The notes beneath the pieces are model-generated. The model did not search any database, was not told the origin of the DNA, and worked only from the letters and a program-made list of their open reading frames with translations. A stretch of DNA of 64,000 nucleotides from Candidatus Eiseniibacteriota bacterium. Its GTDB lineage: Bacteria; Orphanbacterota; Orphanbacteria; Orphanbacterales; Orphanbacteraceae. Shown here piece after piece: positions 2,471 through 59,707 of this stretch (positions are counted from its first letter, which is position 1; the number at the start of each line of letters is the position of its first letter). The stretch is from the NCBI GenBank assembly GCA_029262235.1, contig JAJCZU010000002.1, forward strand, positions 1,142,927 to 1,206,926, read 5' to 3'. The translations under genes and the position numbers were made by a program.

Positions 2471-3569
2471 ATGCCGGACGTCAGAGAAATCGAACAGGAA
2501 CTCGAGTCGAGCCGCACTCGCATTGACGAGCTCGAAGGTTATCTTTGACATTTCCAAACGCATCGCGCACATCGCGCAGCTAGAGGAAAAGATGACGGCC
2601 CAGGACTTCTGGGACCATCAGGCGAAAGCACAGGAAACCACGCGCGCACTCTCTTCGCAGAAGCGCATCGTCGATGAGTTCACGAAGGTGAAGACGGCGC
2701 ACGAGGAAACGGCGATCCTGCTCGAAATGGCGCAGGAAGAGTCGGACGAAGACACGATGCGCGAGGTCGAAAAGGGTCTGCGCCAGCTGACCGTGCTCGT
2801 CACCGATCTCGAAACGAAGAGTCTGCTCGGCGCGCCCGAAGATTCCGGGAATGCCATCATCAATATCAATCCCGGCGCCGGCGGAACGGAATCGCAGGAC
2901 TGGGCCCAGATGCTCCTTCGCATGTATCAGCGATGGGGCGAACGCCGCGGGTTCAAGCAGAACCTGATCGATATCTCCGCGGGCGACGAAGCGGGAATCA
3001 AAAGCGCCACCCTCGAAATGGAGGGTGATTACGCGTACGGATTTCTGCGCTCGGAAGCGGGCGTGCATCGCCTCGTTCGCATTTCGCCTTTCGACGCGGC
3101 GCATCGAAGACACACGTCTTTCGCGTCGGTCGCCGTCTTCCCCGAATCGGAAGAGATCGAAGAAGTGGAGATCCTCGATTCGGATCTCCGCGTCGACACG
3201 TTCCGATCGAGCGGGGCGGGCGGCCAGCACGTCAACAAGACCGATTCCGCGGTCCGCATCACGCACCTTTCGACGAACATCGTCGTCACGTGCCAGAGCG
3301 AGCGCTCCCAGCATCGAAATCGGGCGAACGCGATGAAAGTGCTGAAGGCACGTCTTCTGCAACAGCGCCTCGAGGAGGAAGCGCAGAAATCCGCGGAGCG
3401 CGAAGGGGAGAAGAAAGAGATCGCGTTCGGGAATCAGATCAGGTCGTACGTTTTCCAGCCGTACACGCTCGTGAAGGATCACCGGACCAATACGGAGGTC
3501 GGCAACGTGCAGGGTGTCATGGACGGCGATATTGAAGCATTCATAGAGGCGTACCTGCGAAGAAAGTAG
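2471..3569 (+). CDS. prfB: peptide chain release factor 2, expressed by programmed +1 frameshift (frame 0 2471..2545, +1 frame 2547..3569)
   Basis: ATG at 2471 encodes 25 codons (MPDVREIEQELESSRTRIDELEGYL) ending at an in-frame TGA inside CTT TGA C (2543-2549); the +1 frame continues DISKRIAH... and contains the RF2-type SPF and GGQ motifs. Confidence 0.9.
2534..2549 (+). promoter_or_regulatory. programmed +1 ribosomal frameshift site of prfB (internal SD-like GAAGG, then UAU CUU UGA C)
   Basis: Sequence gaaggttatctttgac read directly; it matches the classical RF2 autoregulatory slippery site CUU UGA C with an upstream SD-like element. Confidence 0.8.
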
Positions 3570-3633
3570 GCGCCGCGTTCCGTTTGACGCGCCCAATTCG
3601 TCTCCTTATATTGGGGCGACTACGGAGGAGATC

Positions 3634-5109
3634 ATGGCAGACGAAAAACAGTTGATCAAAGTGCGGTACGACAAGAGAGCGATGCTCGAAGAACTGGGCG
3701 TCAACCCGTATCCCACGAAGTACGACAGGGATACGATGGCGGCCGCCGTGCACGAAAACTTCGAGGAGTGGTCAGCGGAGGAACGTCTCGTTTCGATCGC
3801 CGGCCGTCTCATGACCGTTCGCAAAATGGGGAAAGCCTCGTTCGCGAATCTGAAGGACCGGTCGGGTACGATTCAGATCTACGTGACCACGGACAACGTC
3901 GGCGCGGACGCCTACACGATCTGGAAGCGGCTCGAGGGGGGCGATCTCGTCGGCGTACGCGGTATCCCGTTTCGCACACAGAAGGGCGAGATCTCGCTGC
4001 AGGTCAGGGAGTTCTCGGTGCTCGCGAAGTCCCTTCGCCCGCTGCCCGAAAAATGGCACGGTCTGAAGGACAAGGAAACCCGGTACAGGCAGCGCTACGT
4101 CGATCTCATCGTGAACGACGACGTGCGCGCCGTGTTCGAGAAGCGGGCGCTCATCGTGCGTGTCGTCAGGAACTATCTCGACGAGCGCGGGTTTCTCGAA
4201 GTAGAGACGCCGATCCTGCAGCCCCTGTACGGCGGCGCCTCGGCGCGGCCGTTTACGACGCATCACAACACTTTGGACATGAAGCTGTTCCTCAGGATCG
4301 CGGACGAGCTCTACCTGAAGCGTTTGATCGTCGGCGGATACGAAAAAGTGTACGAGATCGGAAAAGACTTTCGAAACGAGGGGATGGACAAGACGCACAA
4401 CCCCGAGTTCACGCAGCTCGAACTGTACGAGGCTTACGCCGACTACAACACCATGATGGAGCACGTGGAGAACATCATGCGTGCGATCGCCATGGCCCTG
4501 CACGGGAGCACGACGATTACGTTCCAGGGGCGCGAAAATGATCTCGGGAAGCCGTGGACACGCCTTTCCTTCGTCGACGCGCTCTCGGAAAAGGTCGGGA
4601 AGGACGTGCTCGCGCTTTCGAACGACGAGCTTCGGGCGGCGGCGAAAGAGCGCCACATCGAACTCCCGGACGAAGCGTCGAACGGCATGATCATGGCGGA
4701 ACTCTTCGACGTGCTCGTGGAACCGGGGATTCAGGACCCGACGTTCGTTCTCGATTTTCCGAAGGAGATATCGCCTCTCGCGAAAGAACGCCAAGGCCGC
4801 CCCGGTGTGGTGGAGCGGTTCGAACCGTATTTGTGCGGAATGGAGATCGGAAATGCGTTCTCGGAGCTGAACGACCCCGTGGAGCAGCGCAGGCGCTTCG
4901 AAGCGCAGCTCGAACTCCGGGGGCCCGAGAGCGAGGAAGCGCAGCAGCTGGACGAGGATTATCTCCGTGCGCTCGAATACGGCATGCCGCCGACGGGCGG
5001 GCTCGGGATCGGCATCGACCGGATCAGCGTGGTCTTCGCGGACCAGCCCTCGATCCGGGACGTGATCCTGTTCCCGCAGATGAGACCCGAGACCGCTCCC
5101 TCAAAGTAG
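3634..5109 (+). CDS. lysS: lysyl-tRNA synthetase (class II)
   Basis: 491 aa; N-terminal OB anticodon-binding region followed by class II catalytic core; conserved prfB-lysS gene order; GGAGGAG before the ATG. Confidence 0.9.
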   Translation: MADEKQLIKVRYDKRAMLEELGVNPYPTKYDRDTMAAAVHENFEEWSAEERLVSIAGRLMTVRKMGKASFANLKDRSGTIQIYVTTDNVGADAYTIWKRLEGGDLVGVRGIPFRTQKGEISLQVREFSVLAKSLRPLPEKWHGLKDKETRYRQRYVDLIVNDDVRAVFEKRALIVRVVRNYLDERGFLEVETPILQPLYGGASARPFTTHHNTLDMKLFLRIADELYLKRLIVGGYEKVYEIGKDFRNEGMDKTHNPEFTQLELYEAYADYNTMMEHVENIMRAIAMALHGSTTITFQGRENDLGKPWTRLSFVDALSEKVGKDVLALSNDELRAAAKERHIELPDEASNGMIMAELFDVLVEPGIQDPTFVLDFPKEISPLAKERQGRPGVVERFEPYLCGMEIGNAFSELNDPVEQRRRFEAQLELRGPESEEAQQLDEDYLRALEYGMPPTGGLGIGIDRISVVFADQPSIRDVILFPQMRPETAPSK

Positions 5110-5116
5110 GCGAAAC

Positions 5117-6352
5117 ATGGGCTACGAGTTCTTCATCGCGAAAAGGCACATCAAGTCGCCCAGCCGCTTCGGCTTCGTGCCGATCATTACGCTGATCTCG
5201 ATTCTCGGCGTCTTCGTCGGGGTCGCTTCGCTGATCGTCGTTCTTTCCGTCATGAACGGCTTCGAAACCGAGGTGAAGTCGAGGATCGTGGGCACACATG
5301 CCCATGTCATCCTGCTGAAGTTCGGGAACGAGCCGATCGAACCCGATGCCGCCCTGATGACGACCGTGCGCGAAACGCCCGGTGTTACCGCGAGCGCGCC
5401 GTTCGTCTATTCCAAGGCGATGATTCAGGTCGGCAAGGAGCAGGACGGGATCGTCATCAAAGGCGTCGATCCGGAACAGGAAGACGCCGTGTCGGATCTG
5501 CTGCGCCGCACGTCGCCGCCCGACGCACGCCTGCAGTGGGAGGACGGCGCCATGCCCCCTGTGCTGCTCGGTGAAGAGATCGCGCTGAACCTCGGCGCCA
5601 CGCTCGGCGAGACGATCGTGCTCGCATCGTTTCAGAACACGTCGCGCAACCCGTTCGGCGCCGTCCCGAAGATGCGTCGCTTCCGCGTGCAGGGGACGTT
5701 CGACTCGGGCATGTACGAATACAATTCGACTCTACTATTGATGCCGCTCCGCGCGGCGCAGGACTTCTTCGGCCTGGGCGACAACGTGACCGGCATCGCG
5801 ATCAATGTCGAAGACGCGTACGCCGCCCCTGAAATCGCCGCGCAGGTGGTCGCGCGCGTCGGCAGCCCGCCGTACAGGACGAACAACTGGATTCATTTGA
5901 ACCGCACGCTCTTTACGTGGATGGAAACGGAAAAACGGGTGATGTTCATCATCCTGGCTCTCGTGGTTCTCGTGGCCGCGTTCAACATCGCGAGCACGCT
6001 GATCATGGTCGTCATGGAGAAAACACGCGAGATCGGTGTTCTCAAATCGATGGGCGCCACGCTCCGCAGCATTCTGATCATTTTCGTCTTGGAGGGCGTG
6101 ACGATCGGAGGGATCGGCACGCTGCTCGGATGCATCGGGGGGTGGGGGACCTGTGTCCTGATCGATCGCTATCAGATCATTCCGCTTCCCTCGGACATCT
6201 ACTTCATCGATTCTCTCCCCGTGAGCCTCGAATGGACCGACGTGGCCCAGGTCGCGGTGGCGGCCATGGTGATCTGTCTCTTCGCGACTCTCTATCCCGC
6301 GTGGAAAGCCTCTCGTCTCGAGCCGATCGAGGCGATCCGGGTGGACGGCTGA
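5117..6352 (+). CDS. lipoprotein-release ABC transporter permease (LolC/LolE family, FtsX-like)
   Basis: 411 aa; N-terminal TM helix, large periplasmic loop and C-terminal TM bundle typical of FtsX/LolCE permeases; immediately followed by a LolD-like ATPase. Confidence 0.8.
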   Translation: MGYEFFIAKRHIKSPSRFGFVPIITLISILGVFVGVASLIVVLSVMNGFETEVKSRIVGTHAHVILLKFGNEPIEPDAALMTTVRETPGVTASAPFVYSKAMIQVGKEQDGIVIKGVDPEQEDAVSDLLRRTSPPDARLQWEDGAMPPVLLGEEIALNLGATLGETIVLASFQNTSRNPFGAVPKMRRFRVQGTFDSGMYEYNSTLLLMPLRAAQDFFGLGDNVTGIAINVEDAYAAPEIAAQVVARVGSPPYRTNNWIHLNRTLFTWMETEKRVMFIILALVVLVAAFNIASTLIMVVMEKTREIGVLKSMGATLRSILIIFVLEGVTIGGIGTLLGCIGGWGTCVLIDRYQIIPLPSDIYFIDSLPVSLEWTDVAQVAVAAMVICLFATLYPAWKASRLEPIEAIRVDG

Positions 6353-6353
6353 T

Positions 6354-7055
6354 ATGAGTTACATCGTCGAAACGAAAAACCTCAGCAAGTCGTACCGGAC
6401 GGGCGATCAGTCGCTCTCGGTGCTCGAAGACATCGACCTGCAGGTCAGTCAGGGAGAAATTCTGTCGATCGTGGGAACGTCCGGCGCCGGCAAGAGCACG
6501 CTGCTGCACGTGATCGGTACGCTCATCCGCCCGACGACGGGCGAGGTTCTGATCGACGGCCAGGATGTATTCAGACTCTCCGATCACAAGCTTTCGCGCT
6601 TTCGCAACGAACGCATCGGGTTCGTGTTTCAGTTTCACCATCTGCTCCCGGAGTTCAGCGCGGAAGAGAACATCATGCTTCCGCTTCTGATCGGGGGAGC
6701 GCGCGAAGGCGACGCACGGAAGCGGGCGCGCGAACTGCTGCACTCCGTGTCTCTCGAAGCGCGCGCATCGCATCATCCGTCCGAACTCTCCGGCGGCGAA
6801 CAGCAGCGTATCGCCGTAGCGCGTGCGCTTGCGACGAAACCCGCCGTGGTGCTGGCCGACGAACCGTCGGGCAATCTCGACGAAGACACGAGCGAAGAAC
6901 TTCACCAGTTGATATGGGACGTCCGGAGCGAAACCGGGCAGGCCTTCGTGATCGTTACCCATGACGCCCTCCTCGCCGACCGCGCCGACCGCAAGGTCGT
7001 GCTGCACGCGCACCGGCTCGCGACGGATCCGGGTCCCGTGAAAGTGGGCGCATGA
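6354..7055 (+). CDS. lolD: lipoprotein-release ABC transporter ATP-binding protein
   Basis: Walker A GTSGAGKST, ABC signature LSGGEQQR, Walker B VVLADEP. Confidence 0.85.
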   Translation: MSYIVETKNLSKSYRTGDQSLSVLEDIDLQVSQGEILSIVGTSGAGKSTLLHVIGTLIRPTTGEVLIDGQDVFRLSDHKLSRFRNERIGFVFQFHHLLPEFSAEENIMLPLLIGGAREGDARKRARELLHSVSLEARASHHPSELSGGEQQRIAVARALATKPAVVLADEPSGNLDEDTSEELHQLIWDVRSETGQAFVIVTHDALLADRADRKVVLHAHRLATDPGPVKVGA

Positions 7056-7657
7056 TGAAATGCCAGATCTGCTCCGAGCGCGAGGCCCGGGTTCACTACA
7101 CGGAGATGAAGGACGACGAAGTACGTACGCTGCGTCTTTGCGAACAGTGCGCCGAGGCACGCGGATTCACGAAGATGGAGAAGAAACCCGAATTCAGCCT
7201 GCCCGATCTCCTGGCCGGCATGGCCGAGGACAAATTCGCGGGGACGGAAACCGAAGCGGCCCCTCTCACGTGCGAGCGCTGCGGTCTCACGTACCCCGAA
7301 TTCAAGAAGACCGGGCGCCTCGGCTGCGGGGAGTGCTATGAAGCCTTTGCCGCCCCGCTCCTGCCGCTCCTGAAGCGGATTCACGGGAGCGAGAACCACG
7401 TGGGGAAAGTCCCGGCGGCCTCGCGGGAAACCGACCGGCGCCCCCCCCGGGAGGTCCCTCGCAAGGTCCCCGTGGAGCCTCCCGAGCCCGGGGAGTCCCG
7501 GGAGACGGATGAGGTCCGGGAAACGCAGGAAACCCGCATGGCGCGTCTGGAGGACCTCAGGCGCCAGCTCGACCGCTGTGTCGACGCGGAGGACTTCGAG
7601 CGCGCGGCGGCCATCAGGGACCGGATTCAGCGACTGGAGGAGTCCCGTGGTGCCTAG
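7052..7657 (+). CDS. mcsA: McsA-like protein (UvrB/UvrC-motif protein, putative arginine kinase activator)
   Basis: Two CxxC pairs (CQIC...CEQC and CERC...CGEC) plus a C-terminal UVR-like helix (EDFERAAAIRDRIQRLEE); ATG overlaps the lolD stop (ATGATGA); directly precedes mcsB. Confidence 0.7.
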   Translation: MMKCQICSEREARVHYTEMKDDEVRTLRLCEQCAEARGFTKMEKKPEFSLPDLLAGMAEDKFAGTETEAAPLTCERCGLTYPEFKKTGRLGCGECYEAFAAPLLPLLKRIHGSENHVGKVPAASRETDRRPPREVPRKVPVEPPEPGESRETDEVRETQETRMARLEDLRRQLDRCVDAEDFERAAAIRDRIQRLEESRGA

Positions 7658-8714
7658 AGCGCCCTGGCCCGAGCCCGACTGGATGTCCGGAGAAGGCCCG
7701 GAGTCCGTCACCGTTCTTTCGACGCGGATACGTCTCGCCCGCAATCTGACCGGCCATCCGTTCACTCATCGTGCGGAGGAAGAGGAGCGCGGGGAGATCC
7801 TCGAGGATGTCCGGGAAGCGGCCCGCGCGGCACGGTCACTCGCCACGCCGCGCATTCTCCGCCTCGACCGGACGTCGACCCTCGACCGGCAGTATCTCGT
7901 CGAACGTCATCTGGTCTCTCCCGACCTCGCCAACGCCCGCGGACCGCGCGCCGTTGCGGTGGGAAAAGGGGAGACTTTGAGCGTAATGATCAACGAAGAA
8001 GACCATTTGCGGATCCAGGGCCTCTTATCCGGGTTTCAACTAAGGAATGCCTGGAATCTCGTCGATAAATTGGACGAGGATTTGGGGACGAATCTGGACC
8101 TGGCGTTTTCCCCGAAATGGGGATACCTGACCGCCTGCCCGACGAATACGGGTACCGGTCTTCGCGCATCGGTCCTGATTCATCTCCCGGGGCTCGTTCT
8201 CACGAAGCAGATCGGCAAGGTACTGCGAGGCATCTCGCAGGTGGGCCTCGCGGTCCGCGGCATGTTCGGAGAGGGCACGGAAGTCATGGGGAACTTTTTC
8301 CAGATTTCCAACCAGACCACTCTGGGCCTCAGTGAGAACGAAGTGATCGAAAGTCTCGGTCGGGTGACCCGCCAGGTCATCGATCATGAACAGAGCGCTT
8401 CCGAGGTACTGCTCAAGAGCGCTCCTCATCAGATCGAGGACAAGGTGTTTCGCGCGTACGGGATTCTTCGGCACGGCCGCGTCATTTCTTCGCAGGAAGT
8501 CGTGAGCATGACTTCGGCATTGCGATTCGGATTCGGTCTCGGCTTTCTGCGGGACCGGCTCGACGCGCACCGCCTGAACCGTCTCATGATCGAGACACTC
8601 CCGGCGCATCTTCAGCGCGCGAACGGGACGAGGCTCGATCAGGCGGAACGGGATTACCGGCGCGCCGCATTCGTTCGCAGCCTGCTCGGCGAAGAGACGG
8701 ACGCAGAGGCGTAA
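7647..8714 (+). CDS. mcsB: protein arginine kinase (ATP:guanido phosphotransferase family)
   Basis: Phosphagen-kinase-like catalytic domain; GTG start at 7647 or 7650 preceded by GGAGGAG (7636-7642) and overlapping the mcsA stop; ATG at 7683 is an alternative. The ORF-track start at 7509 is rejected because it overlaps mcsA. Confidence 0.8.
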   Translation: MVPRAPWPEPDWMSGEGPESVTVLSTRIRLARNLTGHPFTHRAEEEERGEILEDVREAARAARSLATPRILRLDRTSTLDRQYLVERHLVSPDLANARGPRAVAVGKGETLSVMINEEDHLRIQGLLSGFQLRNAWNLVDKLDEDLGTNLDLAFSPKWGYLTACPTNTGTGLRASVLIHLPGLVLTKQIGKVLRGISQVGLAVRGMFGEGTEVMGNFFQISNQTTLGLSENEVIESLGRVTRQVIDHEQSASEVLLKSAPHQIEDKVFRAYGILRHGRVISSQEVVSMTSALRFGFGLGFLRDRLDAHRLNRLMIETLPAHLQRANGTRLDQAERDYRRAAFVRSLLGEETDAEA

Positions 8715-8716
8715 CC

Positions 8717-8745
8717 TTGTGCCTGCCGTGGGGAGTGGGTATATT
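8717..8745 (+). promoter_or_regulatory. candidate sigma70-type promoter upstream of clpC (-35 TTGTGC, 17-bp spacer, -10 TATATT)
   Basis: Hexamers and spacing read directly in the mcsB-clpC intergenic region; no experimental support. Confidence 0.3.
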
Positions 8746-8788
8746 ATGGGCAACCTTTTCCTGAGAAGCAGCCGGAGGGGCTAACGGA

Positions 8789-11272
8789 ATGCACGATCGA
8801 TTTACAGAACGCGTCCGCAAGGTCATGTATCTTGCGCGTGAAGAAGCAGGCCGCTTGCAGCACGACTACATCGGAACAGAACATCTGCTTCTCGGCATCG
8901 TTCGCGAAGGAGAGGGGATCGCCGCCACGGTGCTCCATAATCTCGGCCTGGATCTCGATCAGATCCGACAGGCGGTCGAGAACATGGTATCGGGGAGCGG
9001 GGGAACGCTCACGATCGGCGAGATTCCGTTTACGCCGCGCGCCAAGCGTGTGCTCGAACTCGCGGTGGAAGAAGCGCGGCTGCTGAGCCATAACTACGTC
9101 GGCACGGAACATCTGCTGCTCGGCCTCATTCGCGAAGGCGAAGGGGTTGCGGCGCGCGTGCTGATCGACCTCGGCGCGGACAAGAAGAAAGTACGCGAGG
9201 AGACGCTCAAGCTTCTCGGCGGCCATCCCGTCGGCAACACGCAGGCGCAGGCTCCGCAGAAAAGTGAAACGCCCGCACTCGACCAGTTCGGGCGCGATCT
9301 CACGACGCTCGCGCGCGAAGGAAAACTCGATCCCGTGATCGGACGCAACGGCGAAATCGAACGCGTGATCCAGGTTCTCTGCCGTCGCAAGAAAAACAAT
9401 CCGGCCCTGATCGGCGAACCGGGCGTCGGCAAGACCGCCATCGCCGAAGGGCTCGCCGAGCGGATCGCTTCGAACCACGTTCCGCATCTTCTGATGAACA
9501 AACGCCTCGTGACGCTCGACCTCGCGTCGATCGTCGCCGGCACGAAATATCGCGGCCAGTTCGAAGAGCGGCTCAAGGCCGTCATGAATGAAATCCGCGA
9601 ATCCGACAACGTCATCATCTTCATCGACGAACTGCACACGATCGTCGGGGCCGGCGGCGCGGAAGGCGCCATCGACGCTTCGAACATGCTGAAGCCGGCG
9701 CTCGCGCGCGGCGAACTGCAGTGCATCGGCGCGACCACGCTCGACGAATACCGCAAGCACATCGAAAAGGACGGCGCGCTCGAGCGTCGCTTCCAGCCGA
9801 TCACGATCAACCCGCCGACCGTGCAGGAGACCATCCAGATCATCCGCGGACTGCGTGACAAGTACGAAGCGCATCATCGCGCCGAGATCACGGACGATGC
9901 GATCACGGCCGCCGTCAAGCTGTCTGATCGCTTCATCAACGACCGCTTCCTGCCCGACAAGGCAATCGACATTATCGACGAAGCGGGTTCGCGCGCGCGC
10001 CTCAGCGTGAGCGAGATCCCGAAGGACCTGAACGACATCGAGCGCAAGCTGAACCAGGTCACGCAGGAAAAAGAAGCGGCGATCTGTTCGCAGGAATTCG
10101 AAAAAGCCGCCGCGCTCCGCGACCAGGAGAAGGATCTCCGGAACCAGCTCCTCAATTTCCAGAAGGACTGGGACGTGCAGAAGAAAGAGGACCGCGCCGT
10201 CGTCGATGTCGAAGACGTCGCGCAGGTCATCTCCGCGATTACGGGGATCCCGGTGCAGAAGCTCGAACGGACGGAGAGCGAAAAGCTTCTCCATATGGAA
10301 GACGGACTGCAGACGAAAGTCATCGGTCAGGCCGAAGCGGTCACGGCGATTTCGAAAGCGATTCGCAGAAACCGCGCCGGACTGCAGAATCCGAACCGCC
10401 CGATCGGGTCGTTCATCTTCCTCGGACCGACCGGTGTCGGGAAAACGGAACTCGCGCGCGTCATGTCCGAATTCCTGTTCGACGACCGCGATTCGCTGAT
10501 CCGGATCGACATGTCCGAATACATGGAAAAATTTGCCGTGAGCCGTCTCGTCGGAGCGCCTCCGGGATACGTGGGATATGAAGAGGGCGGCCAGCTGACG
10601 GAGAAGGTCCGCAGAAAGCCGTATTCGATCGTGCTGCTCGACGAGATCGAGAAAGCGCACCCGGACGTCTTCAATCTGCTGCTGCAGGTGCTCGAAGACG
10701 GCCAGCTGACGGACAGCTTCGGCCGCCGCGTCAATTTCCGGAACACGGTCATCATCATGACCTCGAACATCGGGGCCCGCCAGGTCAAGCAGGGAGGCTC
10801 GCTCGGCTTCCAGAAGGCCGGCGAGGACGTCAAGCAGGGGCTTCAGAGCGGCAAGTTCATGGATGAGCTGAAGAAAACGTTCAATCCCGAGTTCTTGAAC
10901 CGCGTGGACGAAACCATTATCTTCCGTTCTCTGGTACGCGAGGATCTCGAGAAGATCGTGAACATCCTCTTCTCGGAAGTCGAAGGGCGGCTGATCGAGC
11001 ACGATTTCACCGTCGAGCTCTCGGATGAGGCGAAGGAGCTGATCGTCGACAAGGGATACGACCCGGCCTACGGGGCGCGCCCGCTTCGGAAGACGATCCG
11101 TCAGCTCGTGGAAGATCCGCTTTCCGAGGAGATCCTCGGCGGCAATATCAAGCCGGGACAGAAGATCATCATCGGCCGCAAGGGCGACGTGCTCACGTTC
11201 AAGAAGCAGAAGGTGGCCAAGCCCGCGAAGAAGGCGGTCGCCGCGCCGGCATCAGACGAAGAAGACTCGTAG
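8789..11272 (+). CDS. clpC: ATP-dependent Clp protease ATP-binding subunit ClpC
   Basis: 827 aa; duplicated N-terminal Clp repeat domains, two AAA+ modules with Walker A GEPGVGKT and [11 protein letters not shown]-like middle region. Confidence 0.9.
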
Positions 11273-11303: not shown

Positions 11304-13583
11304 ATGAGAATTTGTGGGGACGTAATTCTCAAGATCATTGCGGGGGGGAAGTCCTTTCTTCTCCCCCTTCTTTTTGCCATGCATATGCTCGCGCCGGCTC
11401 TCGCAGGCGCGCAGACCGTGCAGTCGATCGACGTCAGAGGCGCGACGCGGATCAAGGCCGCATCGGTCGTCAAGACGTTCGGGATCCAGCCGGGTGACCG
11501 GTACTCGGGCGACGAAATCGCCGAGGGGATCCGCAACCTCTACGCTACCCGCCAGTTCCGGACCGTGGCAATCGAGCGCCGGGCGCTCGACGGCGGCGAC
11601 TTCGCTCTCACGATCGAGATCGAAGAGCGCACCGTGCTCGGAGACTTCTCCTACCAGGGCAACGACAAACTCAAAAAAGACGACCTGAAAGAGGAAACGA
11701 TCCTGCGTCGCGGGCTCGTGCTCTCGGACCGCTCTCTCTTTCGCGAAAAAGTCCGTATCCAGAATCTCTACAAGGAGAAAGGGTACAGGAGCGCCACTGT
11801 AGAGTGGGAGCTTGCTGAGGCCGATACCGGCGGGCGCCAGTCCGTCGTCTATCGGATCGACGAAGGCAACAAGGTCAAGGTGAAGAAGGTCGTTGTGCAG
11901 GGCGCGGACAAGCTCGGCGAGGGCAAAGTCCGCGGCGAGATGAAGACGAAGCCAGACAACTGGTATCGAAGCGGCGACTTCAAGGAAGAGGAATTCGAAG
12001 GGGACAAGACGCTGATCGAGCGTCTCTATGCGAAGAACGGTTATCTGGATGCCCGCGTCGATTCGACGACGGTCGTGGTGGCGAAGAACGGCAAGGACCT
12101 GACGGTCAAGGTGTTCGTGACCGAGGGCGAGCAGTTCCGCATGGGCAGCGTCAGGTTCGAGGGGAATGAACAGTTCGAAACCGACGTGCTCCGGCGCACG
12201 ATGAGACTGCGCCCCGGCGATGTATTCGATCAGGAAAAGTACGAGTTCTCGATCGGCGAACTCTACGGCGTGTATTCCGAAGAGGGATACATCTTCACGA
12301 ACATCATCCCCGAGCGAACGCCCAAGGGTCAGGTCATCGATATCGCTTTCTATATTACCGAGGGCGATCCCGCGCGAATCGATCGCGTCAACATCGCGGG
12401 CAACAACAAGACGAAAGAGCGCACGATCAGGCGCGAACTCGTCGTGGCGCCGGGCGATCTCTTCAAGCGCTCCCGGATCATCCGGTCGCAGCGTGAACTC
12501 ATGCAGCTCGGATTCTTCCAGGACATTCGCTTCGACTATCAGCCCGTGCGCGGCACCGACCGGATCGACATCACGTTCGATGTCGTGGAGCGGACGACCG
12601 GCGAAGCGAGCATGGGGGCGGGATTCAGCTCGCTCAATGGAGCCACCGGGTTCCTGCGACTGTCGCAGGGGAACCTGTTCGGCGGCGGGGAACGCGTGAA
12701 CCTCACGTGGGAATTCGGCGACTTCCAGCAGATCGAACTTTCGTACACCGAACCCTGGCTTTTCGATACACCGACGTCCGCCGGCTTCGACATCACCTCG
12801 GTGCGGCGCAACTGGGACTCGTACGTCGAGAAGCGAAAGGGGGGCGGGGTGCGCCTCGGCCGCCGCCTGCCGTGGCTCGATTATTCGCGAGTGGACGCCG
12901 CGTATCGGATCGAAGAACGCACGATCGACCCGGACGAGGACGCGAGTGAATCCGTGCAGAACGCTGCGGGAACGCGCACGCTTTCGTCGACACGACTTTC
13001 GTTCACGCGCAATTCCACCGACCGGCTGTTCCATCCGACGAGCGGCTCGGTCAACATTCTCGTAGGCGAATGGGCGGGCGGGATTCTCGCCGGCTCGACC
13101 GACTACCAGCAGTACGAAGTGGAAACGCGGTGGTATTACCCGTCGTTCTGGAAATTCTTCCTGGGGCTGCGCGCACGGATCGGTGTCGTGGACGGACTCG
13201 ACAAACCATCCACCGTACCGCTTTACAAACGCTATCGCCTGGGCGGCACCGGAGTCTGGGGGCTGCGGGGATACGACGACCGCGCGGTCGTACCGGACGG
13301 AAACTCGTTCGACTTCGGCGGGCGCACCATGTTGATTCTGTCGGCTGAATACAAATTCCCGATCGCGGATCCGTCGATTTTCGGCCTGTTCTTCTTCGAC
13401 GCCGGCAATTCATGGAACAGCTTCGAAGAGATTCGGCCTAACGATTTGAAGCGCGGCGCCGGATTCGGGGTCCGTTTCCAGATCCCGATGCTGGGCCAGA
13501 TGGGCTTCGATATGGGATACGGACTCGACAAGGACGGCGGAGGAGCCTGGGAACCCCACTTCCAGCTCGGCTCGCTCTTCTAG
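11304..13583 (+). CDS. bamA: outer membrane protein assembly factor BamA (Omp85 family)
   Basis: 759 aa; N-terminal signal-like segment, POTRA-repeat region, C-terminal beta-barrel ending in aromatic F; the exact start is uncertain. Confidence 0.85.
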   Translation: MRICGDVILKIIAGGKSFLLPLLFAMHMLAPALAGAQTVQSIDVRGATRIKAASVVKTFGIQPGDRYSGDEIAEGIRNLYATRQFRTVAIERRALDGGDFALTIEIEERTVLGDFSYQGNDKLKKDDLKEETILRRGLVLSDRSLFREKVRIQNLYKEKGYRSATVEWELAEADTGGRQSVVYRIDEGNKVKVKKVVVQGADKLGEGKVRGEMKTKPDNWYRSGDFKEEEFEGDKTLIERLYAKNGYLDARVDSTTVVVAKNGKDLTVKVFVTEGEQFRMGSVRFEGNEQFETDVLRRTMRLRPGDVFDQEKYEFSIGELYGVYSEEGYIFTNIIPERTPKGQVIDIAFYITEGDPARIDRVNIAGNNKTKERTIRRELVVAPGDLFKRSRIIRSQRELMQLGFFQDIRFDYQPVRGTDRIDITFDVVERTTGEASMGAGFSSLNGATGFLRLSQGNLFGGGERVNLTWEFGDFQQIELSYTEPWLFDTPTSAGFDITSVRRNWDSYVEKRKGGGVRLGRRLPWLDYSRVDAAYRIEERTIDPDEDASESVQNAAGTRTLSSTRLSFTRNSTDRLFHPTSGSVNILVGEWAGGILAGSTDYQQYEVETRWYYPSFWKFFLGLRARIGVVDGLDKPSTVPLYKRYRLGGTGVWGLRGYDDRAVVPDGNSFDFGGRTMLILSAEYKFPIADPSIFGLFFFDAGNSWNSFEEIRPNDLKRGAGFGVRFQIPMLGQMGFDMGYGLDKDGGGAWEPHFQLGSLF

Positions 13584-13727: not shown

Positions 13728-14252
13728 ATGAAATGGGGAATGATCGGAATCGCCCTGACGGCTCTTCTGCTCTCGACCGGAGACGCGCTCGCTGAGTCAA
13801 AAATCGGGTATATCGATTCGGCGCGCATTTTCGCCGAGTACAAAGGGACCGAGGACGCACAGCGCACCTTCGACTCCGAGGTGGAGCAGTGGGAGCAGCA
13901 GGCGCAGGGCCTCAAGACGCAGCTCGACTCGCTCGAAGGCGAGTATCAGCGCCAGAGCCTGATGCTCTCGGAGACGCGCAAGAGAGAGCGCCAGCAGGAG
14001 ATCCTGACGAAGCGCCAGGAGTACGAGACCTTCGTACAGTCCGTCTGGGGCCCGCAGGGCAAGCTCGCCGTGAAGAATTCGGAACTGGTCCAGCCGATCG
14101 TGGAACTGATCAACGTCATTCTGCAGCGTCTGGGCGTGGAAGAGGACTATGCGATCGTGTTCGACGCCTCGCTGGGGGGGATCGTCTACGCAGCCGAAGG
14201 AATCGATCTGACGGACAGAATCATCGAGGAGCTCAATCAAGGCGTGCAATAG
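13728..14252 (+). CDS. skp: periplasmic chaperone Skp/OmpH
   Basis: 174 aa; signal peptide followed by a coiled-coil-rich sequence; conserved position between bamA and lpxD; AGGAGG before the ATG. Confidence 0.8.
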   Translation: MKWGMIGIALTALLLSTGDALAESKIGYIDSARIFAEYKGTEDAQRTFDSEVEQWEQQAQGLKTQLDSLEGEYQRQSLMLSETRKRERQQEILTKRQEYETFVQSVWGPQGKLAVKNSELVQPIVELINVILQRLGVEEDYAIVFDASLGGIVYAAEGIDLTDRIIEELNQGVQ

Positions 14253-14366: not shown

Positions 14367-15419
14367 ATGAAGCTATCTGAAATCGTGGAGCGCGTCGGAG
14401 GAAAACTCCGCGGCGACGGTTCTATCGAGATCACCGGTGTGGCGGGAATTCGCGAAGCGCAGGAGGGCGATATCACCTTTATTGCGGACTCGCGTTATGA
14501 AGCTTTTCTGGCTTCGACCCGCGCCTCGGCAGTGATCCTCGCGAAAAACGGGGACCTCGGTGATATCGACAAAGCCGTTGTCATCGTGAACGAGAATCCA
14601 TACGTCGCGTTCCTGAGAGCCATTGAAATCTTCTCGCCCCGCGATCACGACGATCCGCGGGGAGTGCATCCGACTGCCGTGATCGGCGAGGGCGTCGAAC
14701 TCGGCGAACGGATCACGATCGGCGCGCACGTCGTCGTGGAAGACCACTGCGCGATCGGTGCCGGAACGCGGATCCTTGCGGGAAGCTATATAGGATTCCG
14801 ATCGCGGGTCGGCGCCGACTGCATGATCTTTCCGAACGTAACGGTGCGCGAAGATTCGGCGATCGGCGACCGCGTGATCATTCACAGCGGCACGGTTGTG
14901 GGGTCGGACGGTTTCGGCTTCGCCACGACCGGTGGAAAGCACACGAAGATTCCGCAGATCGGGCGCGTCGTGATCGATGACGATGTCGAGATCGGTTCGA
15001 ACGTTTCGATCGATCGCGCGACAACCGGAATCACGCACATACACAGCGGCACGAAGATCGACAACCTCGTGCAGATCGCGCACAACGTCGTGATCGGCGA
15101 GAACTCGCTCATCGTTGCGCAGGTCGGGATTTCCGGCAGCACGGAAATCGGAAGAAACGTGACAATCGCCGGACAGGCCGGAGTCATCGGCCACATCACG
15201 ATCGGGGACAACGTACAGGTTGCAGCGCAGTCGGGGGTCGTCAAGTCGGTCCCGGCGAATACACAGGTGAGCGGCTTCCCCGCGAGAGAGCACTCTGTCA
15301 GCCGGCGCATCTGGGCGGCCATTGCGAAGCTGCCGGACCTCGTGAAGACGATCAAACGCCTCTCGAAGCGGGTCGATGAGCTCGAAAAGCAGCTCGACTC
15401 CAAATCGATCTCCCAATAA
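14367..15419 (+). CDS. lpxD: UDP-3-O-acylglucosamine N-acyltransferase
   Basis: 350 aa; left-handed beta-helix hexapeptide repeats with an LpxD-type N-terminal domain. Confidence 0.9.
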
Positions 15420-15439: not shown

Positions 15440-16762
15440 TTGCGCGAAAATCAGAGAACGATCGAGAGAGAAGTCACGTTCAGCGGCGTCGGACTTCATA
15501 CGGGCGTGGCGGTCGACATGCGTTTCCGTCCGGCGCCCCCGAACACGGGCATCAAATTCCATCGCACGGATCTCGGAGTCGAGATCGTGGCGGATATCGC
15601 GAATGCGCCCGACCTGGCGGGAAGCATCCGTCGCACGATCCTCGGATCGGGCGACGAGCGTGTCAGCACGGTCGAACACGTCCTGGCGGCCGCCGTCGGA
15701 CTCGGCATCGACAACATGGTGATCGATCTGAACGCCGAGGAACCGGCCGAGCCGGATGGAAGCGCGCTTCCTTATGTGGAACTGCTGCGCACCGCCGGTC
15801 TCGTCGAGCAATCCGAAAAGCGCTTCTTTCTCGAGATCCGCAAACCCATCTCACTGCAGGAAAACGGCATTGAACTGATTGCGCTGCCGCACGACGGCTT
15901 CCGCATCAGCTATACGCTGCAGTACGACGACCCCGCGATCGGAACGCAGCACATGGTGATCGATGTCGACGAAGAGACGTTCATCGACCAGATCGCGCCG
16001 GCGCGCACGTTTGCGCTCGGCTCCGAAGTCGCCGCGCTGAAAGAGATGGGTCTTATCAAGGGCGGCAGTTACGACAATGCGATCGTCGTAACCGAGGGAG
16101 CTACGAAAAGCAACGAACCGCTTCGTTTCGACGACGAGTTCGTACGCCATAAAATTCTGGATTTGATCGGCGATCTTTTCCTGACCGGACTTCCCATCAA
16201 GGGCCACATCATTGCGCACAAATCCGGACACTCGACAAACGTGAAACTGGCGCGGCTCCTACGCAGCTACGCAGAAACCAAGTACGGTCCCACAATGAAG
16301 CTGAGGCACGAGACCCCCATGCAGACACAATTCGACATTCATGAAATCATGAAGATTCTCCCGCACCGATACCCGTTTCTCCTCGTCGACAAGATCATCG
16401 ACCTGGGGCCGAAACATGTGACGGCTATCAAGAACGTTACGATGAACGAACCGTTCTTTATGGGACATTTTCCGGGGCACCCGATCATGCCGGCCGTTCT
16501 CATCATCGAGGCGATGGCGCAGGCAGGGGGGATTCTGCTGCTGAACTCGGGCGGCAATCCCGCGGAAAAACTCGTATACTTCATGGGAATCGATAACGCG
16601 AAATTCCGAAAGCCGGTCCTTCCCGGCGATACGCTCCGATTCGAGCTGAAACTCATCAGGCTGAAGACCCGTATCTGCAAGATGCGCGGGGAAGCCTACG
16701 TGGGGGATGATCTCGTGGCGGAAGCCGACCTTTTGTCAACCATCGTCGATCGACAGGAATAG
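15440..16762 (+). CDS. lpxC: bifunctional UDP-3-O-acyl-GlcNAc deacetylase / 3-hydroxyacyl-ACP dehydratase (LpxC-FabZ fusion)
   Basis: 440 aa; N-terminal LpxC-like domain and C-terminal FabZ hot-dog domain (PFFMGHFPGHPIMPAVLIIEAMAQ); TTG start. Confidence 0.9.
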   Translation: MRENQRTIEREVTFSGVGLHTGVAVDMRFRPAPPNTGIKFHRTDLGVEIVADIANAPDLAGSIRRTILGSGDERVSTVEHVLAAAVGLGIDNMVIDLNAEEPAEPDGSALPYVELLRTAGLVEQSEKRFFLEIRKPISLQENGIELIALPHDGFRISYTLQYDDPAIGTQHMVIDVDEETFIDQIAPARTFALGSEVAALKEMGLIKGGSYDNAIVVTEGATKSNEPLRFDDEFVRHKILDLIGDLFLTGLPIKGHIIAHKSGHSTNVKLARLLRSYAETKYGPTMKLRHETPMQTQFDIHEIMKILPHRYPFLLVDKIIDLGPKHVTAIKNVTMNEPFFMGHFPGHPIMPAVLIIEAMAQAGGILLLNSGGNPAEKLVYFMGIDNAKFRKPVLPGDTLRFELKLIRLKTRICKMRGEAYVGDDLVAEADLLSTIVDRQE

Positions 16763-16770: not shown

Positions 16771-17565
16771 ATGAGCAGCGAACCCAAGTTGGCAGAATCC
16801 CTGATACACCCCACCGCAATCGTGGAAGAAGGGGCGGAGATCGGGAAGAACGTCCGGATCGGGCCGCATTCCTGGATCCGTGAGAACGTCGTCATCGGAG
16901 ACGACTGTGTAATCGGCGCGAACGTCGTCATCGAAGGATGGACGAGCATCGGCCGCGGATGCACGGTTTATCACTCGGCCGTCGTCGGAGCCCCCCCGCA
17001 GGATCTGAAGTACCGGGGCGACAGAAGCTACGTCGAAATCGGCGAGCACAACGTCATCCGCGAGTTCGTCACGATCAACCTCGCGACCTCGCCCGAAGGC
17101 GTCACGCGAATCGGCGACCACAATCTGCTGATGGCATATGTCCACGTGGCACACGAGTGCGAGATCGGGAATCACACGATCATCGCCAACGCCGTGAATC
17201 TGGCCGGCCACGTAACAGTCGAAGACTACGCGACGATCGGGGGCGTCTCACCCGTCCACCAGTTCGTGCGCATCGGAGCACACAGCTTCATCGGAGGCGG
17301 CTCGCGCGTCGCGAAGGACGTACCGCCTTTCGTTCTCGCAGCCGGCAATCCGCTTCGCGTCGGCGGCATCAACGTCGTCGGCCTCACGAGGCGCGGTTTC
17401 GATTCCGACGTCAAGAGTCACCTCATTCGAGCCTACAAAATCCTGTTTCGCAGTGACAGGAACACGTCGCAGGCAATTGCAGCGATTCGCGCCGAGATCC
17501 CGATGACCCCCGAGGTCGAGCGCTTCGTGCAGTTCATCGAGTCTTCGGAACGGGGCATCATCTAA
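16771..17565 (+). CDS. lpxA: acyl-ACP--UDP-N-acetylglucosamine O-acyltransferase
   Basis: 264 aa hexapeptide-repeat acyltransferase in the canonical lpxD-fabZ-lpxA order. Confidence 0.9.
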   Translation: MSSEPKLAESLIHPTAIVEEGAEIGKNVRIGPHSWIRENVVIGDDCVIGANVVIEGWTSIGRGCTVYHSAVVGAPPQDLKYRGDRSYVEIGEHNVIREFVTINLATSPEGVTRIGDHNLLMAYVHVAHECEIGNHTIIANAVNLAGHVTVEDYATIGGVSPVHQFVRIGAHSFIGGGSRVAKDVPPFVLAAGNPLRVGGINVVGLTRRGFDSDVKSHLIRAYKILFRSDRNTSQAIAAIRAEIPMTPEVERFVQFIESSERGII

Positions 17566-17586: not shown

Positions 17587-18558
17587 ATGAAACCCTCCCG
17601 CCTCGGCGTCATTGGAGTCGGAATCTGGGGACGCAATCACGCCCGCGTTCTGGCCGGCCTGGCCGATGCGGAGCTGGTCGGCCTGTACGACCCGGACGAG
17701 GCCCGCGCCCGCGAAATTGCGAACGAACACGGCTGTCAGGCATTCGCGTCACTCGCGGATCTCGTCGAACGCACGGAGGCCGTCGTTGTCGCCGCTCCCA
17801 CGACCCACCATCATTCCATCACACTCGAATCCCTTGCCGCCGGAAACCACGTTCTCGTCGAAAAACCCATCGCATTTACTCTGACCGAGGCGGACGAAAT
17901 GATCGCGGCCGCCGAGCGCGCCGATCGCGTGCTGGCCGTGGGCCACCTGGAACGCTTCAACCCGTCGATCGAGGCGCTGATCGAAACGACGAACAATCCG
18001 CGCTTCGTCGAAGTTCACCGCCTCTCGCCATTCTCGGTCCGCGGACTCGACGTGTCGGTCGTGCTCGATCTCATGATTCACGATATCGATGTCCTTCTCC
18101 GCGTCGTGCAGTCCCCGGTTGCCGAGGTCCGCAGCGTCGGCGTCCCCGTCCTGAGCCGCGCGATCGATATCGCGAACGTACGGCTTCGCTTCGAGAACGG
18201 ATGCGTCGCCAACGTCACGGCAAGCAGGATCTCGCTCTCGAAGACACGCAAGATCCGCATCTTCGAACCGGACCGCTATATATCCGTCAACTCACAGACG
18301 CAGGAGATCGTGGCGTATCGAAGAACGGGGCCGTCACCCGCGCCCGAGAAGCTGACGGCGGAAGCGTTCGGAAAGCTCGTCGAAAGACAGAACCTCTCCC
18401 GTCCTCAGGAAGAACCGCTGCAGCGCGAGCTCAGCTGCTTTCTTGCCGCAGTACGCGGCGAAGAGAAGCGCATCGTCCCGGGCCGGGAGGGACGGGATGC
18501 GCTGGCCGTAGCGCTGCGCATTCTCGACGAGATGGAGCTTCGAGAAGAGATCGGATGA
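17587..18558 (+). CDS. Gfo/Idh/MocA family NAD(P)-dependent oxidoreductase (possible GnnA-like UDP-GlcNAc 3-dehydrogenase)
   Basis: N-terminal Rossmann motif IGVGIWG and EKP motif; located between lpxA and lpxB. Confidence 0.8.
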   Translation: MKPSRLGVIGVGIWGRNHARVLAGLADAELVGLYDPDEARAREIANEHGCQAFASLADLVERTEAVVVAAPTTHHHSITLESLAAGNHVLVEKPIAFTLTEADEMIAAAERADRVLAVGHLERFNPSIEALIETTNNPRFVEVHRLSPFSVRGLDVSVVLDLMIHDIDVLLRVVQSPVAEVRSVGVPVLSRAIDIANVRLRFENGCVANVTASRISLSKTRKIRIFEPDRYISVNSQTQEIVAYRRTGPSPAPEKLTAEAFGKLVERQNLSRPQEEPLQRELSCFLAAVRGEEKRIVPGREGRDALAVALRILDEMELREEIG

Positions 18559-19193
18559 GGGAAGGCGCGGGGACGATGCGACCGGAAAGCGCCGCGCGCG
18601 AGAGCGGATCTGCGATGGAGAGCCTGGGCCGGTTTCTGTTCCGGCACCGAAGCCTGACTCCCGTTCCCCTCGTGATCCTATTGCTCGTACTGGCGCGGCC
18701 GACGATGATGACGGCACTCTCCGCCGTACCGTTCTGGCTCGCAGGCGCCGCCGTCCGGCTGTCGGCCCTCCGTTTCATCGGGGGGGCCTCCCGCTCCACG
18801 AATCTGGCTCCCGGCGAAATCGTCACGGCCGGCCCGTTCGGCGTCGTTCGAAACCCGCTCTACGTGGGCAACTTTCTCCTGACAACCGGATTCGCCGTCT
18901 TCTCCGGGCACTGGCTCTTCGCCCTCGTGCCGCTGCTTCTGTTTCCGATCCAGTACGTGCCCGTCGTCCGCGCGGAAGAGGCCGAACTGGGCCGACGATT
19001 CCCCGCCGCGTTTGACGACTATTCCCGGACCGTCCCGCGCTGGTTCCCGCGGCGCCCTGCATCTCTCATTGTGTTCGGTGACGCCCCGCGCACATGGCGC
19101 GAAGCCGCCCGGATCGAAAGAAGCACGATCCGCTCCGTGCTCGCGCTCATTATCGCACTTGCACTCGTGCAGTCCTGGCGGGGAACCCACTGA
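18555..19193 (+). CDS. ICMT/PEMT-family membrane methyltransferase (possible LmtA-like lipid A methyltransferase)
   Basis: Multi-TM protein with the C-terminal RNPLYVG...EEAELGRRF...Y...VPRWFP motif typical of the isoprenylcysteine carboxyl methyltransferase family; ATG at 18555 overlaps the upstream stop (ATGA). Confidence 0.65.
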   Translation: MREGAGTMRPESAARESGSAMESLGRFLFRHRSLTPVPLVILLLVLARPTMMTALSAVPFWLAGAAVRLSALRFIGGASRSTNLAPGEIVTAGPFGVVRNPLYVGNFLLTTGFAVFSGHWLFALVPLLLFPIQYVPVVRAEEAELGRRFPAAFDDYSRTVPRWFPRRPASLIVFGDAPRTWREAARIERSTIRSVLALIIALALVQSWRGTH

Positions 19194-20356: not shown

Positions 20357-21030
20357 AACCCGTCGTGCGCACGATTCTGTTTTATGCCGGTACGCTTCTC
20401 GGCCCCTGGCTCATCCGCCTGCTCGGCGCCACGTGGCGTGTGCAGTGGGTCGGCGAGGAGAGCCACAAAGCGTGCCGCGCGGAAGGGCGGAACGTCATTC
20501 TCGCGATCTGGCACGGCCGGCTGCTTCCGCTTGCCTACACGCATCGCAGGCGCAACATTCAGATACTGATCAGCCGCCATCAGGACGGTGAGATCATCCG
20601 GCGTGTCACGAAGAGTCTCGGGAACGGCTCGGTGCGCGGGTCGACGGGCAAGGGAGGGGCGCGCGCGATTCTGCAGATGGCGAAGAGGGCGAAGGAGGGG
20701 TGCGACCTCGCGATCACTCCGGACGGGCCGCGCGGACCGCGTGAGGTTGCGCAGGCGGGCGTGCTTCGGATTGCGCAGCGCGCCGGTATCCCCGTCCTTC
20801 CGCTCACGAGCGCCTCGCGCACGAAGCGCGTCTTGTCGTCGTGGGACGGCTTCCAGATTCCGGCGCCGTTCACGCGCCTTGTCGTTGCGTACGGGACGCC
20901 GATCGAGATTCCGGACGACCTCGACGACACGCAGTTCGAGAGAGCGCGGCTGCAGGTCGAAAGCGCGATGCGGGATCTCACGGAAACAGCGGACCGCATT
21001 GCCGGAGGCGAGTCCGAGGCAGCACCATGA
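20353..21030 (+). CDS. DUF374 / lysophospholipid-acyltransferase-like protein
   Basis: 225 aa; small conserved protein of the type usually found between lpxB and kdtA; ATGA-type overlap on both sides. Confidence 0.65.
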   Translation: MKPVVRTILFYAGTLLGPWLIRLLGATWRVQWVGEESHKACRAEGRNVILAIWHGRLLPLAYTHRRRNIQILISRHQDGEIIRRVTKSLGNGSVRGSTGKGGARAILQMAKRAKEGCDLAITPDGPRGPREVAQAGVLRIAQRAGIPVLPLTSASRTKRVLSSWDGFQIPAPFTRLVVAYGTPIEIPDDLDDTQFERARLQVESAMRDLTETADRIAGGESEAAP

Positions 21031-40867: not shown

Positions 40868-40869
40868 GA

Positions 40870-42708: not shown

Positions 42709-42737
42709 AGCGGGGCCTTCCGTAAGGGGAGAAGGAG

Positions 42738-46554: not shown

Positions 46555-46566
46555 CGGACGGAATCG

Positions 46567-59676: not shown

Positions 59677-59707
59677 CACGCCCGGCCTGATCCCTTTCGC
59701 GGAGACC

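Follow-up and report, generated by a model that had tools for sequence, protein, structure and literature searches.

A McsA-McsB-ClpC arginine-phosphorylation module without an adjacent ctsR, set among lol and bam genes of a lipopolysaccharide-producing bacterium

Introduction

The phosphoarginine (pArg) degradation tag is presented as a Gram-positive mechanism, with only 'some' Proteobacteria mentioned and without activity (PMC11046695), and the papers on Chlamydia regard that organism's own ClpC and McsAB as an intriguing exception (PMC10128030, PMC11708050). The genes for such a pathway, mcsA, mcsB and clpC, lie side by side in a 64-kb stretch of DNA from Candidatus Eiseniibacteriota bacterium (contig JAJCZU010000002.1; the whole stretch is hereafter called the window), among genes for outer-membrane and lipopolysaccharide (LPS) biogenesis and with no ctsR beside them. 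Is this a working pArg system in a diderm host, and is the arrangement peculiar to one genome? At a probability of about 0.8, we read the locus as a genuine and intact McsA-McsB-ClpC pArg system in a diderm LPS producer, in which the canonical pathway would carry out CtsR-independent quality control or regulated proteolysis and would be co-expressed with housekeeping envelope genes.

The McsA, McsB and ClpC proteins

Pfam and NCBIfam scans of the open reading frames (ORFs) in the window placed the module inside a long run of plus-strand genes. A preliminary description of this DNA had named the three genes as adjacent and in the Firmicute-like order; both statements held, and the genes are orthologues of the Bacillota set:

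7052-7657, + strand: mcsA, arginine-kinase activator, 201 amino acids (aa)
7647-8714, + strand: mcsB, protein arginine kinase, 355 aa, GTG start
8789-11272, + strand: clpC, class I AAA+ unfoldase, 827 aa

McsB scored 409 bits against the NCBIfam 'protein arginine kinase' equivalog NF002194 (cutoff 385), and the ATP:guanido phosphotransferase catalytic domain (PF00217, E 2e-63) occupies residues 52-250 of 355, in agreement with the guanido kinase that had been proposed. The protein aligned over 339 residues to the B. subtilis McsB structures 8wtb_A and 6tv6_A (E 1e-86). The catalytic site consists of C167 (B. subtilis numbering, used for McsB throughout) and the NEEDH motif (PMC11046695); both align in the window protein, as the cysteine of CPTNTGTGLRAS and as INEEDHLR, such that the catalytic residues on which the earlier claim depended are all kept. 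The pArg receptor residues R337, D338 and R341 are also present, within ERDYRRA where B. subtilis has ERDIRRA; R337/D338 form the receptor site mutated in PMC8370763. The C-terminal 100 residues align to the dimerisation and pArg receptor region of B. subtilis McsB, and close homologues bear the PF27454 McsB_C domain. Across 76 non-Bacillota McsB proteins, that of the window included, R29, E120/E121/D122/H123, R125, C167, R176, R207 and R341 are invariant. Arginine-specific protein kinase activity is predicted for the window McsB.

McsA contains two zinc domains, Z1 (C4-x2-C7 ... C30-x2-C33) and Z2 (C74-x2-C77 ... C92-x2-C95), followed by an L3 loop; residues ~120-160 form a Pro/Glu-rich linker, and the C-terminus is a UVR/coiled coil, with the Pfam UVR match at residues 165-197 (E 2.5e-10). 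The CxxC zinc-finger pairs and UVR motif read earlier from the sequence are accordingly real, with four such pairs. Alignment to B. subtilis McsA (8wtb_B, E 3.5e-26) covered residues 3-132 and 143-176, spanning Z1, Z2, L3 and the coiled coil; the L3 loop of McsA contacts the McsB kinase domain (PMC11046695). All four CxxC pairs are retained in 60 of 73 diderm McsA homologues.

ClpC aligned end to end with B. subtilis ClpC (3j3s, 1074 bits), colinear over residues 2-797, and returned the Pfam domains Clp_N (twice), AAA, AAA_lid_9, UVR, AAA_2 and ClpB_D2-small. It has a double-repeat N-domain, two AAA modules and a short UVR-type M-domain and, compared with 3j3s, no ClpB-length M-domain insertion. 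Residues equivalent to B. subtilis T7, E32, K85, E106 and F436 (the last in the M-domain) are conserved. E32 and E106 are the key residues of the pArg pockets, and T7, E32, K85 and E106 belong to the pockets and the resting-state contacts (PMC12583610). The E32 and E106 equivalents are invariant in 58/58 diderm ClpCs, and those of T7 and K85 are found in 57/58. An LGF loop aligns with the VGF ClpP-docking loop of B. subtilis. With the pArg pockets and the ClpP loop kept, clpC completes the module, as had been suggested.

A conserved lol-mcsAB-clpC-bam context

Lol, Bam and Lpx machinery had been noted for this host, and Pfam/NCBIfam matches within the window confirmed LolCE/LolD, BamA, Skp, LpxD/C/A/B/K and KdtA. 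The preliminary description placed the three module genes correctly but left out the more informative feature of the locus, namely its embedding in an apparent lolCE-lolD operon directly upstream of bamA. The flanking genes are:

3634-5109, + strand: lysS, class II lysyl-tRNA synthetase (Pfam tRNA-synt_2, E 3e-90), which opens the conserved block and in most diderm loci is colinear with lolCE-lolD-mcsA
5117-6352, + strand: lolCE-type lipoprotein-release ABC permease (TIGR02212, 361.9 bits, marginally below the cutoff of 362.45; Pfam MacB_PCD and FtsX)
6354-7055, + strand: lolD, lipoprotein-release ABC ATPase (TIGR02211, E 9e-85; its 283.6 bits fall short of the 307.75 cutoff)
11304-13583, + strand: bamA, five POTRA domains and an Omp85 barrel (Pfam POTRA five times, Omp85)
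13728-14252, + strand: skp/ompH periplasmic chaperone (Pfam OmpH)
14367-15419, + strand: lpxD (Pfam LpxD)

The genes are tightly packed. Gaps of 7 nucleotides (nt) and 1 nt separate lysS from lolCE and lolCE from lolD, the lolD stop and mcsA ATG overlap as ATGA (7052-7055), and the mcsB GTG at 7647 sits 11 nt inside the 3' end of mcsA, with GGAGGAG (7637-7643) as its Shine-Dalgarno sequence; public gene calls on the identical sequence use the same mcsB start and give the same 355-aa product. The mcsB-clpC and clpC-bamA spacers measure 74 and 31 nt. Since it overlaps the lolD stop, mcsA is not the head of a free-standing operon, and lolCE-lolD-mcsA-mcsB appear translationally coupled.

Using tblastn with the window proteins, we found lysS-lolCE-lolD-mcsA-mcsB-clpC-bamA-skp-lpxD with order and strand unchanged at Eisenbacteria-type, Binatia-labelled and Gemmatimonadota loci, and the records of the loci with this synteny carry, in their titles, the names of eight phylum-level groups. 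Directly 5' of mcsA, lolD is present in 30/30 Gemmatimonadota and 4/4 Eisenbacteria loci and also in Fibrobacteres and Ignavibacteria loci, and it is never upstream of mcsA in the Bacillota loci. On the other side, bamA is found 3' of clpC in 5/5 Eisenbacteria and 24/24 informative Gemmatimonadota loci; it does not follow clpC in Omnitrophota, Ignavibacteria or Planctomycetes-Verrucomicrobia-Chlamydiae (PVC) loci. Of 47 lolD-mcsA junctions, 32 overlap or leave ≤2 nt; an mcsA/mcsB overlap is present in 36 of 47, and mcsB and clpC stand a median of 31 nt apart, a spacing that looks like that of a single transcription unit.

Two departures from this order were noted. A gene of ~1 kb stands between lolD and mcsA in 5/5 Omnitrophota, 4/4 Verrucomicrobiota and 5/17 Planctomycetota loci (insertion recorded in L015, L029, L043, L045, L047, L048, L062, L063, L066, L069, L077, L081 and L082), with the remaining order lysS-lolCE-lolD-x-mcsA-mcsB-clpC unaltered. 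It encodes a class IV (branched-chain or D-amino-acid) aminotransferase, which rules it out as a substitute regulator. Loci of Pirellulales, Isosphaeraceae and Thermoguttaceae keep mcsA-mcsB with neither clpC nor lolD adjacent (L025, L049, L061, L067, L071-L073, L075, L076 and L083), and McsA in these mcsAB-only planctomycete loci retains only two or three of the four CxxC pairs, with, for example, CEDHAR or CPHDY in place of CxxC.

Breadth across diderm phyla

A scan of one genome per species yielded at least 599 loci confirmed as McsB relatives, and the best 80 of these formed our locus set. Non-Bacillota account for 72 of the best 80, with record titles naming Gemmatimonadota (32), Planctomycetota (17), Omnitrophota (5), Verrucomicrobiota (4) and Eisenbacteria (3), as well as Binatia, Fibrobacteres, Ignavibacteria and unclassified metagenome-assembled genomes (MAGs). 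Among the matches listed, the closest McsB relatives are MAG proteins of 96% and then 58-71% identity, from records labelled Gemmatimonadetes, Eisenbacteria or Latescibacterota. Because the same genes occur in the same lolCE-lolD setting in many Gram-negative phyla, the window module is no oddity; the mcsA-mcsB-clpC arrangement is what Gemmatimonadota, Eisenbacteria and several more diderm phyla normally have. The earlier framing, a module in an LPS producer, was thus right about the module and its setting and understated its breadth, the arrangement not being peculiar to one genome.

The NCBI pipeline already names these McsB proteins 'protein arginine kinase', and the window locus, orthologous to a known system, has been auto-annotated correctly. 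What is new, in that it is not in the searchable literature, is the operon-like lol-mcsAB-clpC-bam context, its breadth over diderm phyla and the missing R194 latch (see below); a search of that literature for McsB in Planctomycetes, Gemmatimonadetes, Verrucomicrobia or Eisenbacteria, or for McsB with LolD, found no paper on these loci.

Absence of CtsR from the window, and candidate promoters

The genes 5' of the module are polA, coaE, prfB, lysS, lolCE and lolD, with no ctsR among them. The CtsR operator RGTCAAANANRGTCAAA, a tandem heptad of the form RGTCAAA-NAN-RGTCAAA, had no match at ≤3 mismatches in the 64 kb, compared with 1.5 expected by chance, and CIRCE likewise had none in the window. 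For the protein itself, a profile hidden Markov model (HMM) was built from the ORF 5' of mcsA in eight Bacillota loci, one of which was verified as CtsR by Pfam (PF05848 and PF17727), and was run on all six-frame ORFs of the window and of all loci. It recovered 8/8 Bacillota control loci at 231-274 bits, and neither the six-frame translation of the window nor any of 77 other non-Bacillota loci gave a match, the best non-control score being 10 bits. With all eight controls at 231-274 bits and everything else at ≤10 bits, the absence of ctsR adjacent to the module, here and in the 77 other loci, is robust. The two marks of the CtsR regulon, ctsR at the operon head and an operator, are both lacking, and the earlier statement that neither lies upstream stands, by pattern and HMM searches alike, for the 64-kb window.

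Two promoter candidates were noted:

3584-3612, + strand: sigma-70-like promoter candidate TTGACG-17-TATATT ahead of lysS, 10/12 consensus matches
8717-8745, + strand: promoter-like TTGTGC-17-TATATT in the 74-nt mcsB-clpC spacer, under the threshold of the consensus scanner

The former is a possible start of a lysS-lolCE-lolD-mcsA-mcsB(-clpC) transcription unit, a boundary drawn from how closely the genes downstream of it are spaced (gaps of 7 and 1 nt, then overlaps). A consensus promoter scan of 1-15 kb returned 2 sites against 2.9 expected by chance, and the terminator-like count in the same region, also at chance level, was not used for unit boundaries. The latter candidate may be a lineage-specific internal clpC promoter: the CTTGTnCC ... 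GTGGGTATATTAT elements of the mcsB-clpC spacer recur in locus L001 (~11087-11117; McsB 71% identical) with the sequence between them diverged, and more distant loci have mcsB-clpC spacers of only 0-50 nt without a promoter-like motif. As a separate observation, a terminator-like element, with a G-rich hairpin and then a T-run, lies at 11342-11377, just past clpC and 38 nt inside the predicted bamA ORF; such elements are at chance level regionally.

Comparison with known systems

The ctsR-mcsA-mcsB-clpC operon of Bacillus subtilis and Geobacillus (class III heat-shock) has the same three-gene order and mcsA/mcsB overlap as the window. The two have in common NEEDH, Cys167 and R337/D338/R341 of McsB, E32, E106, F436 and the ClpP loop of ClpC, and Z1, Z2, L3 and the coiled coil of McsA. 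Unlike the Bacillus operon, the window is without ctsR (as are the 77 other non-Bacillota loci) and without a CtsR operator, its genes are joined to a lysS-lolCE-lolD unit and followed by bamA, R190/R194 of the octamer latch (PMC8370763) are Lys, its McsA has an extra Pro/Glu-rich linker, and its host has an outer membrane and LPS.

Chlamydia trachomatis, with McsA (CT676), McsB (CT675) and a ClpC of the same type, is likewise a diderm for which no CtsR is reported. Its ClpCP2P1 requires arginine-phosphorylated casein for degradation (PMC10128030, PMC11708050); this work covers ClpC, and McsAB activity is not yet shown there. Whereas the chlamydial mcsAB and clpC occupy separate loci, with mcsAB flanked by tRNA genes and proposed to be horizontally acquired (PMC10128030), the window has all three genes side by side and in linkage with lolD. 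That the module may date back to the ancestor of the PVC group is suggested by the lolD-(ilvE)-mcsA-mcsB-clpC order found in Verrucomicrobiota, Planctomycetota and Omnitrophota, a set that includes no chlamydial locus.

Mycobacterial ClpC1 likewise belongs to the ClpC-type unfoldases and keeps the N-domain pArg pockets in a non-Bacillota host (PMC9604228, PMC13345244). Its structure 8a8u scored 986 bits against the window ClpC; the window differs in encoding a cognate McsA/McsB pair immediately 5' of clpC. Mycobacteria are not known to have an McsB orthologue.

Proposed mechanism and alternative explanations

By homology with the Bacillus system, zinc-bound McsA would bind the McsB kinase domain via Z2 and L3 and activate it, and McsB would then phosphorylate arginine side chains of unfolded or selected proteins. 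The pArg mark would be bound by the two ClpC N-domain pockets, freeing ClpC from its resting state, and ClpC would unfold the substrate and hand it over to ClpP via the LGF loop; pArg-dependent degradation is accordingly predicted for the host. From the coupling to lolCE-lolD and the position upstream of bamA-skp-lpxD, expression is probably tied to the housekeeping and envelope genes. The module would follow these genes and not a heat-shock switch, clpC possibly having an extra promoter of its own, and control would be constitutive instead of stress-gated.

Several points weigh against this reading. The window McsA scored 140.5 bits (E 5e-41) against NCBIfam NF053706, under the Bacillus-tuned cutoff of 210, and on that score is a divergent member of the family; its linker adds ~40 residues absent from the Bacillus counterpart. 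No ClpP was found among the ~50 window genes scanned by Pfam/NCBIfam, and phmmer with an approximate B. subtilis YwlE sequence as query gave no match to a YwlE-type pArg phosphatase in the window or the loci. In Bacillus, too, ywlE is unlinked to clpC. Nor did the CtsR search find a more distant ctsR within the 64 kb. The window McsB has Lys at both the R190 and R194 positions and lacks the Arg194 latch of Bacillus, where R194 is autophosphorylated and latches the closed McsB octamer and an R194K mutant is heat-sensitive (PMC8370763). The R194 position is Lys in 57/76 diderm McsB proteins and Arg in 9/9 Bacillota sampled. The latch is a Bacillus regulatory trait rather than a family-defining one, and, with both positions Lys, the gating of the McsB oligomer may differ from that in Bacillus. 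The taxon labels used here are record titles as given, the McsB tree described below carries no support values, and it is from gene spacing that lysS-lolCE-lolD-mcsA-mcsB(-clpC) would be co-transcribed as one unit. Lastly, for homologues from Gram-negative bacteria, according to PMC11046695, activity 'has never been identified'.

Two readings would deny the module its identity or its age, and both are rejected. That 'McsB' is instead a small-molecule phosphagen kinase of the arginine or creatine type is very unlikely, and the least probable reading that we weighed. Arginine, creatine and taurocyamine kinases do have the PF00217 catalytic fold, a NEEDH-type motif and the catalytic Cys in common with it, but their matches are weaker (E 1e-26 to 1e-45), at least 40 orders of magnitude behind those to the protein-arginine kinases. 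Pfam detected no phosphagen-kinase N-domain, which confers substrate specificity, in the ~50 residues that precede PF00217; the window protein has instead the C-terminal dimerisation domain that binds pArg, and its gene is apparently coupled in translation to the cognate mcsA upstream. In the McsAB complex, the L2 loop of McsA substitutes for the loop that gives phosphagen kinases their specificity (PMC11046695). Recent horizontal gain of a Bacillota mcsA-mcsB-clpC cassette, with ctsR lost in transfer, is highly improbable. Such a gain would fit the three-gene order common to both, the high similarity of ClpC to that of B. subtilis (1074 bits) and the horizontal gain proposed for chlamydial mcsAB (PMC10128030). 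However, in a neighbour-joining tree of McsB, built without support values, Bacillota, PVC with Omnitrophota, and Eisenbacteria and Gemmatimonadota with the Fibrobacteres-Chlorobi-Bacteroidetes (FCB) group form separate clusters, and the window McsB is no closer to Paenibacillus (45-47% identity) than to Planctomycetota (44-49%). The lolD and bamA flanks are also common to loci of differing phylum labels, and the GC content over 6-12 kb (0.59-0.64) is in line with the remainder of the window. Clustering by phylum, shared flanks and unremarkable GC together argue for vertical inheritance of the module over a long time rather than recent import from Bacillota.

The other two readings accept the pArg system and concern what it is for. 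The module may sit between lolCE-lolD and bamA-skp-lpxD because pArg-ClpC(P) proteolysis serves outer-membrane assembly, an addition to the intact pArg system which we consider unlikely; it might clear lipoprotein or outer-membrane protein precursors stuck in the cytoplasm, or set the turnover of Lol/Lpx enzymes such as LpxC. In its favour are the lolD-mcsA adjacency, direct or with one gene between, in eight labelled phylum-level groups, the overlapping lolD-mcsA stop and start codons, and the clpC-bamA adjacency in all informative Eisenbacteria and Gemmatimonadota loci. Gene order so stable over such distances often signals functional linkage. However, lysS and, in PVC and Omnitrophota, the class IV aminotransferase gene (ilvE) belong to the same block and are functionally unrelated, so the block behaves as a mixed housekeeping operon; the clpC-bamA adjacency is missing from PVC, Omnitrophota and Ignavibacteria; and many Planctomycetota (Pirellulales, Isosphaeraceae) keep mcsA-mcsB with no lolD or clpC nearby. 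Slightly less likely again is the wider claim that a real functional link underlies the lolCE-lolD-mcsA-mcsB-clpC(-bamA) order of at least eight diderm groups, with pArg tagging and ClpC(P) guarding outer-membrane biogenesis on its cytoplasmic side; were it true, the module would be ancestral to these diderm phyla, and Bacillota would have gained the CtsR heat-shock wiring later. More doubtful than either is that McsA-McsB chiefly targets and activates ClpC as a disaggregating, refolding unfoldase, or that McsB is a signalling kinase, with little ClpP proteolysis. Disaggregation and refolding by ClpC/McsB/McsA/YwlE of B. subtilis are reported in a preprint (bioRxiv 10.1101/2022.09.15.508104), and neither clpP nor ywlE was found in the window by the scans described above. 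Against this stand the retained ClpP-docking loop (LGF, VGF in B. subtilis), which ClpB-type disaggregases do not have, and the degradation of pArg-casein by chlamydial ClpC with ClpP1P2 (PMC10128030); in Bacillus both roles coexist and are not exclusive.

Other genes of the window

Upstream of lysS and downstream of lpxD, Pfam/NCBIfam scans gave the following genes:

82-1866, + strand: polA (3' part)
1863-2465, + strand: coaE
2523-3569, + strand: prfB-like release factor
15440-16762, + strand: lpxC-fabZ fusion (Pfam LpxC and FabA)
16771-17565, + strand: lpxA (Pfam Acetyltransf_11)
17587-18558, + strand: Gfo/Idh/MocA oxidoreductase
19094-20356, + strand: lpxB (Pfam LpxB)
20353-21030, + strand: DUF374 protein
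20841-22271, + strand: kdtA
22268-23326, + strand: lpxK

In the fusion at 15440-16762, a single ORF joins LpxC (residues 5-274) to a FabZ/FabA-like dehydratase (residues 307-429), and the same fusion occurs in L001, L003 and L005. These three loci also keep the position of the Gfo/Idh/MocA oxidoreductase (17587-18558) between lpxA and lpxB, an enzyme which may modify a lipid A sugar in a GnnA-like manner. Downstream of lpxK lie an MsbA-like ABC exporter, a family 9 (GT9) heptosyltransferase and a polysaccharide cluster, and a Wzy_C domain is also encoded in the window.

At 27106-29855, a BshC homologue (Rossmann-like_BshC and CC_BshC) is followed by a family 4 (GT4) glycosyltransferase, possibly BshA-like, a pairing that points to the synthesis of a bacillithiol-type low-molecular-weight thiol by this diderm host. 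On the minus strand at 37394-42759, a full-length cobalamin-dependent MetH (1157 aa) adjoins an ORF (629 aa) that fuses a homocysteine S-methyltransferase domain to methylenetetrahydrofolate reductase. The polysaccharide export/O-antigen cluster holds large ORFs (429-835 aa) with coding-like GC content at third codon positions at 45127-48598, 51984-54452, 55944-58451 and 58534-59919, none of which had a Pfam match at E ≤ 1e-5.

Significance

A full kinase-activator-unfoldase set, with all the catalytic and pArg-reading residues that we checked kept, belongs to the standard equipment of several large environmental diderm phyla. These diderm modules have no nearby CtsR gene and have a conserved genomic home beside Lol and Bam genes. 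The finding offers leads on pArg proteolysis outside Bacillota, for example in Gemmatimonas or planctomycetes grown in culture, on a possible ancestral PVC origin of the chlamydial system and on a possible tie between pArg tagging and envelope biogenesis.

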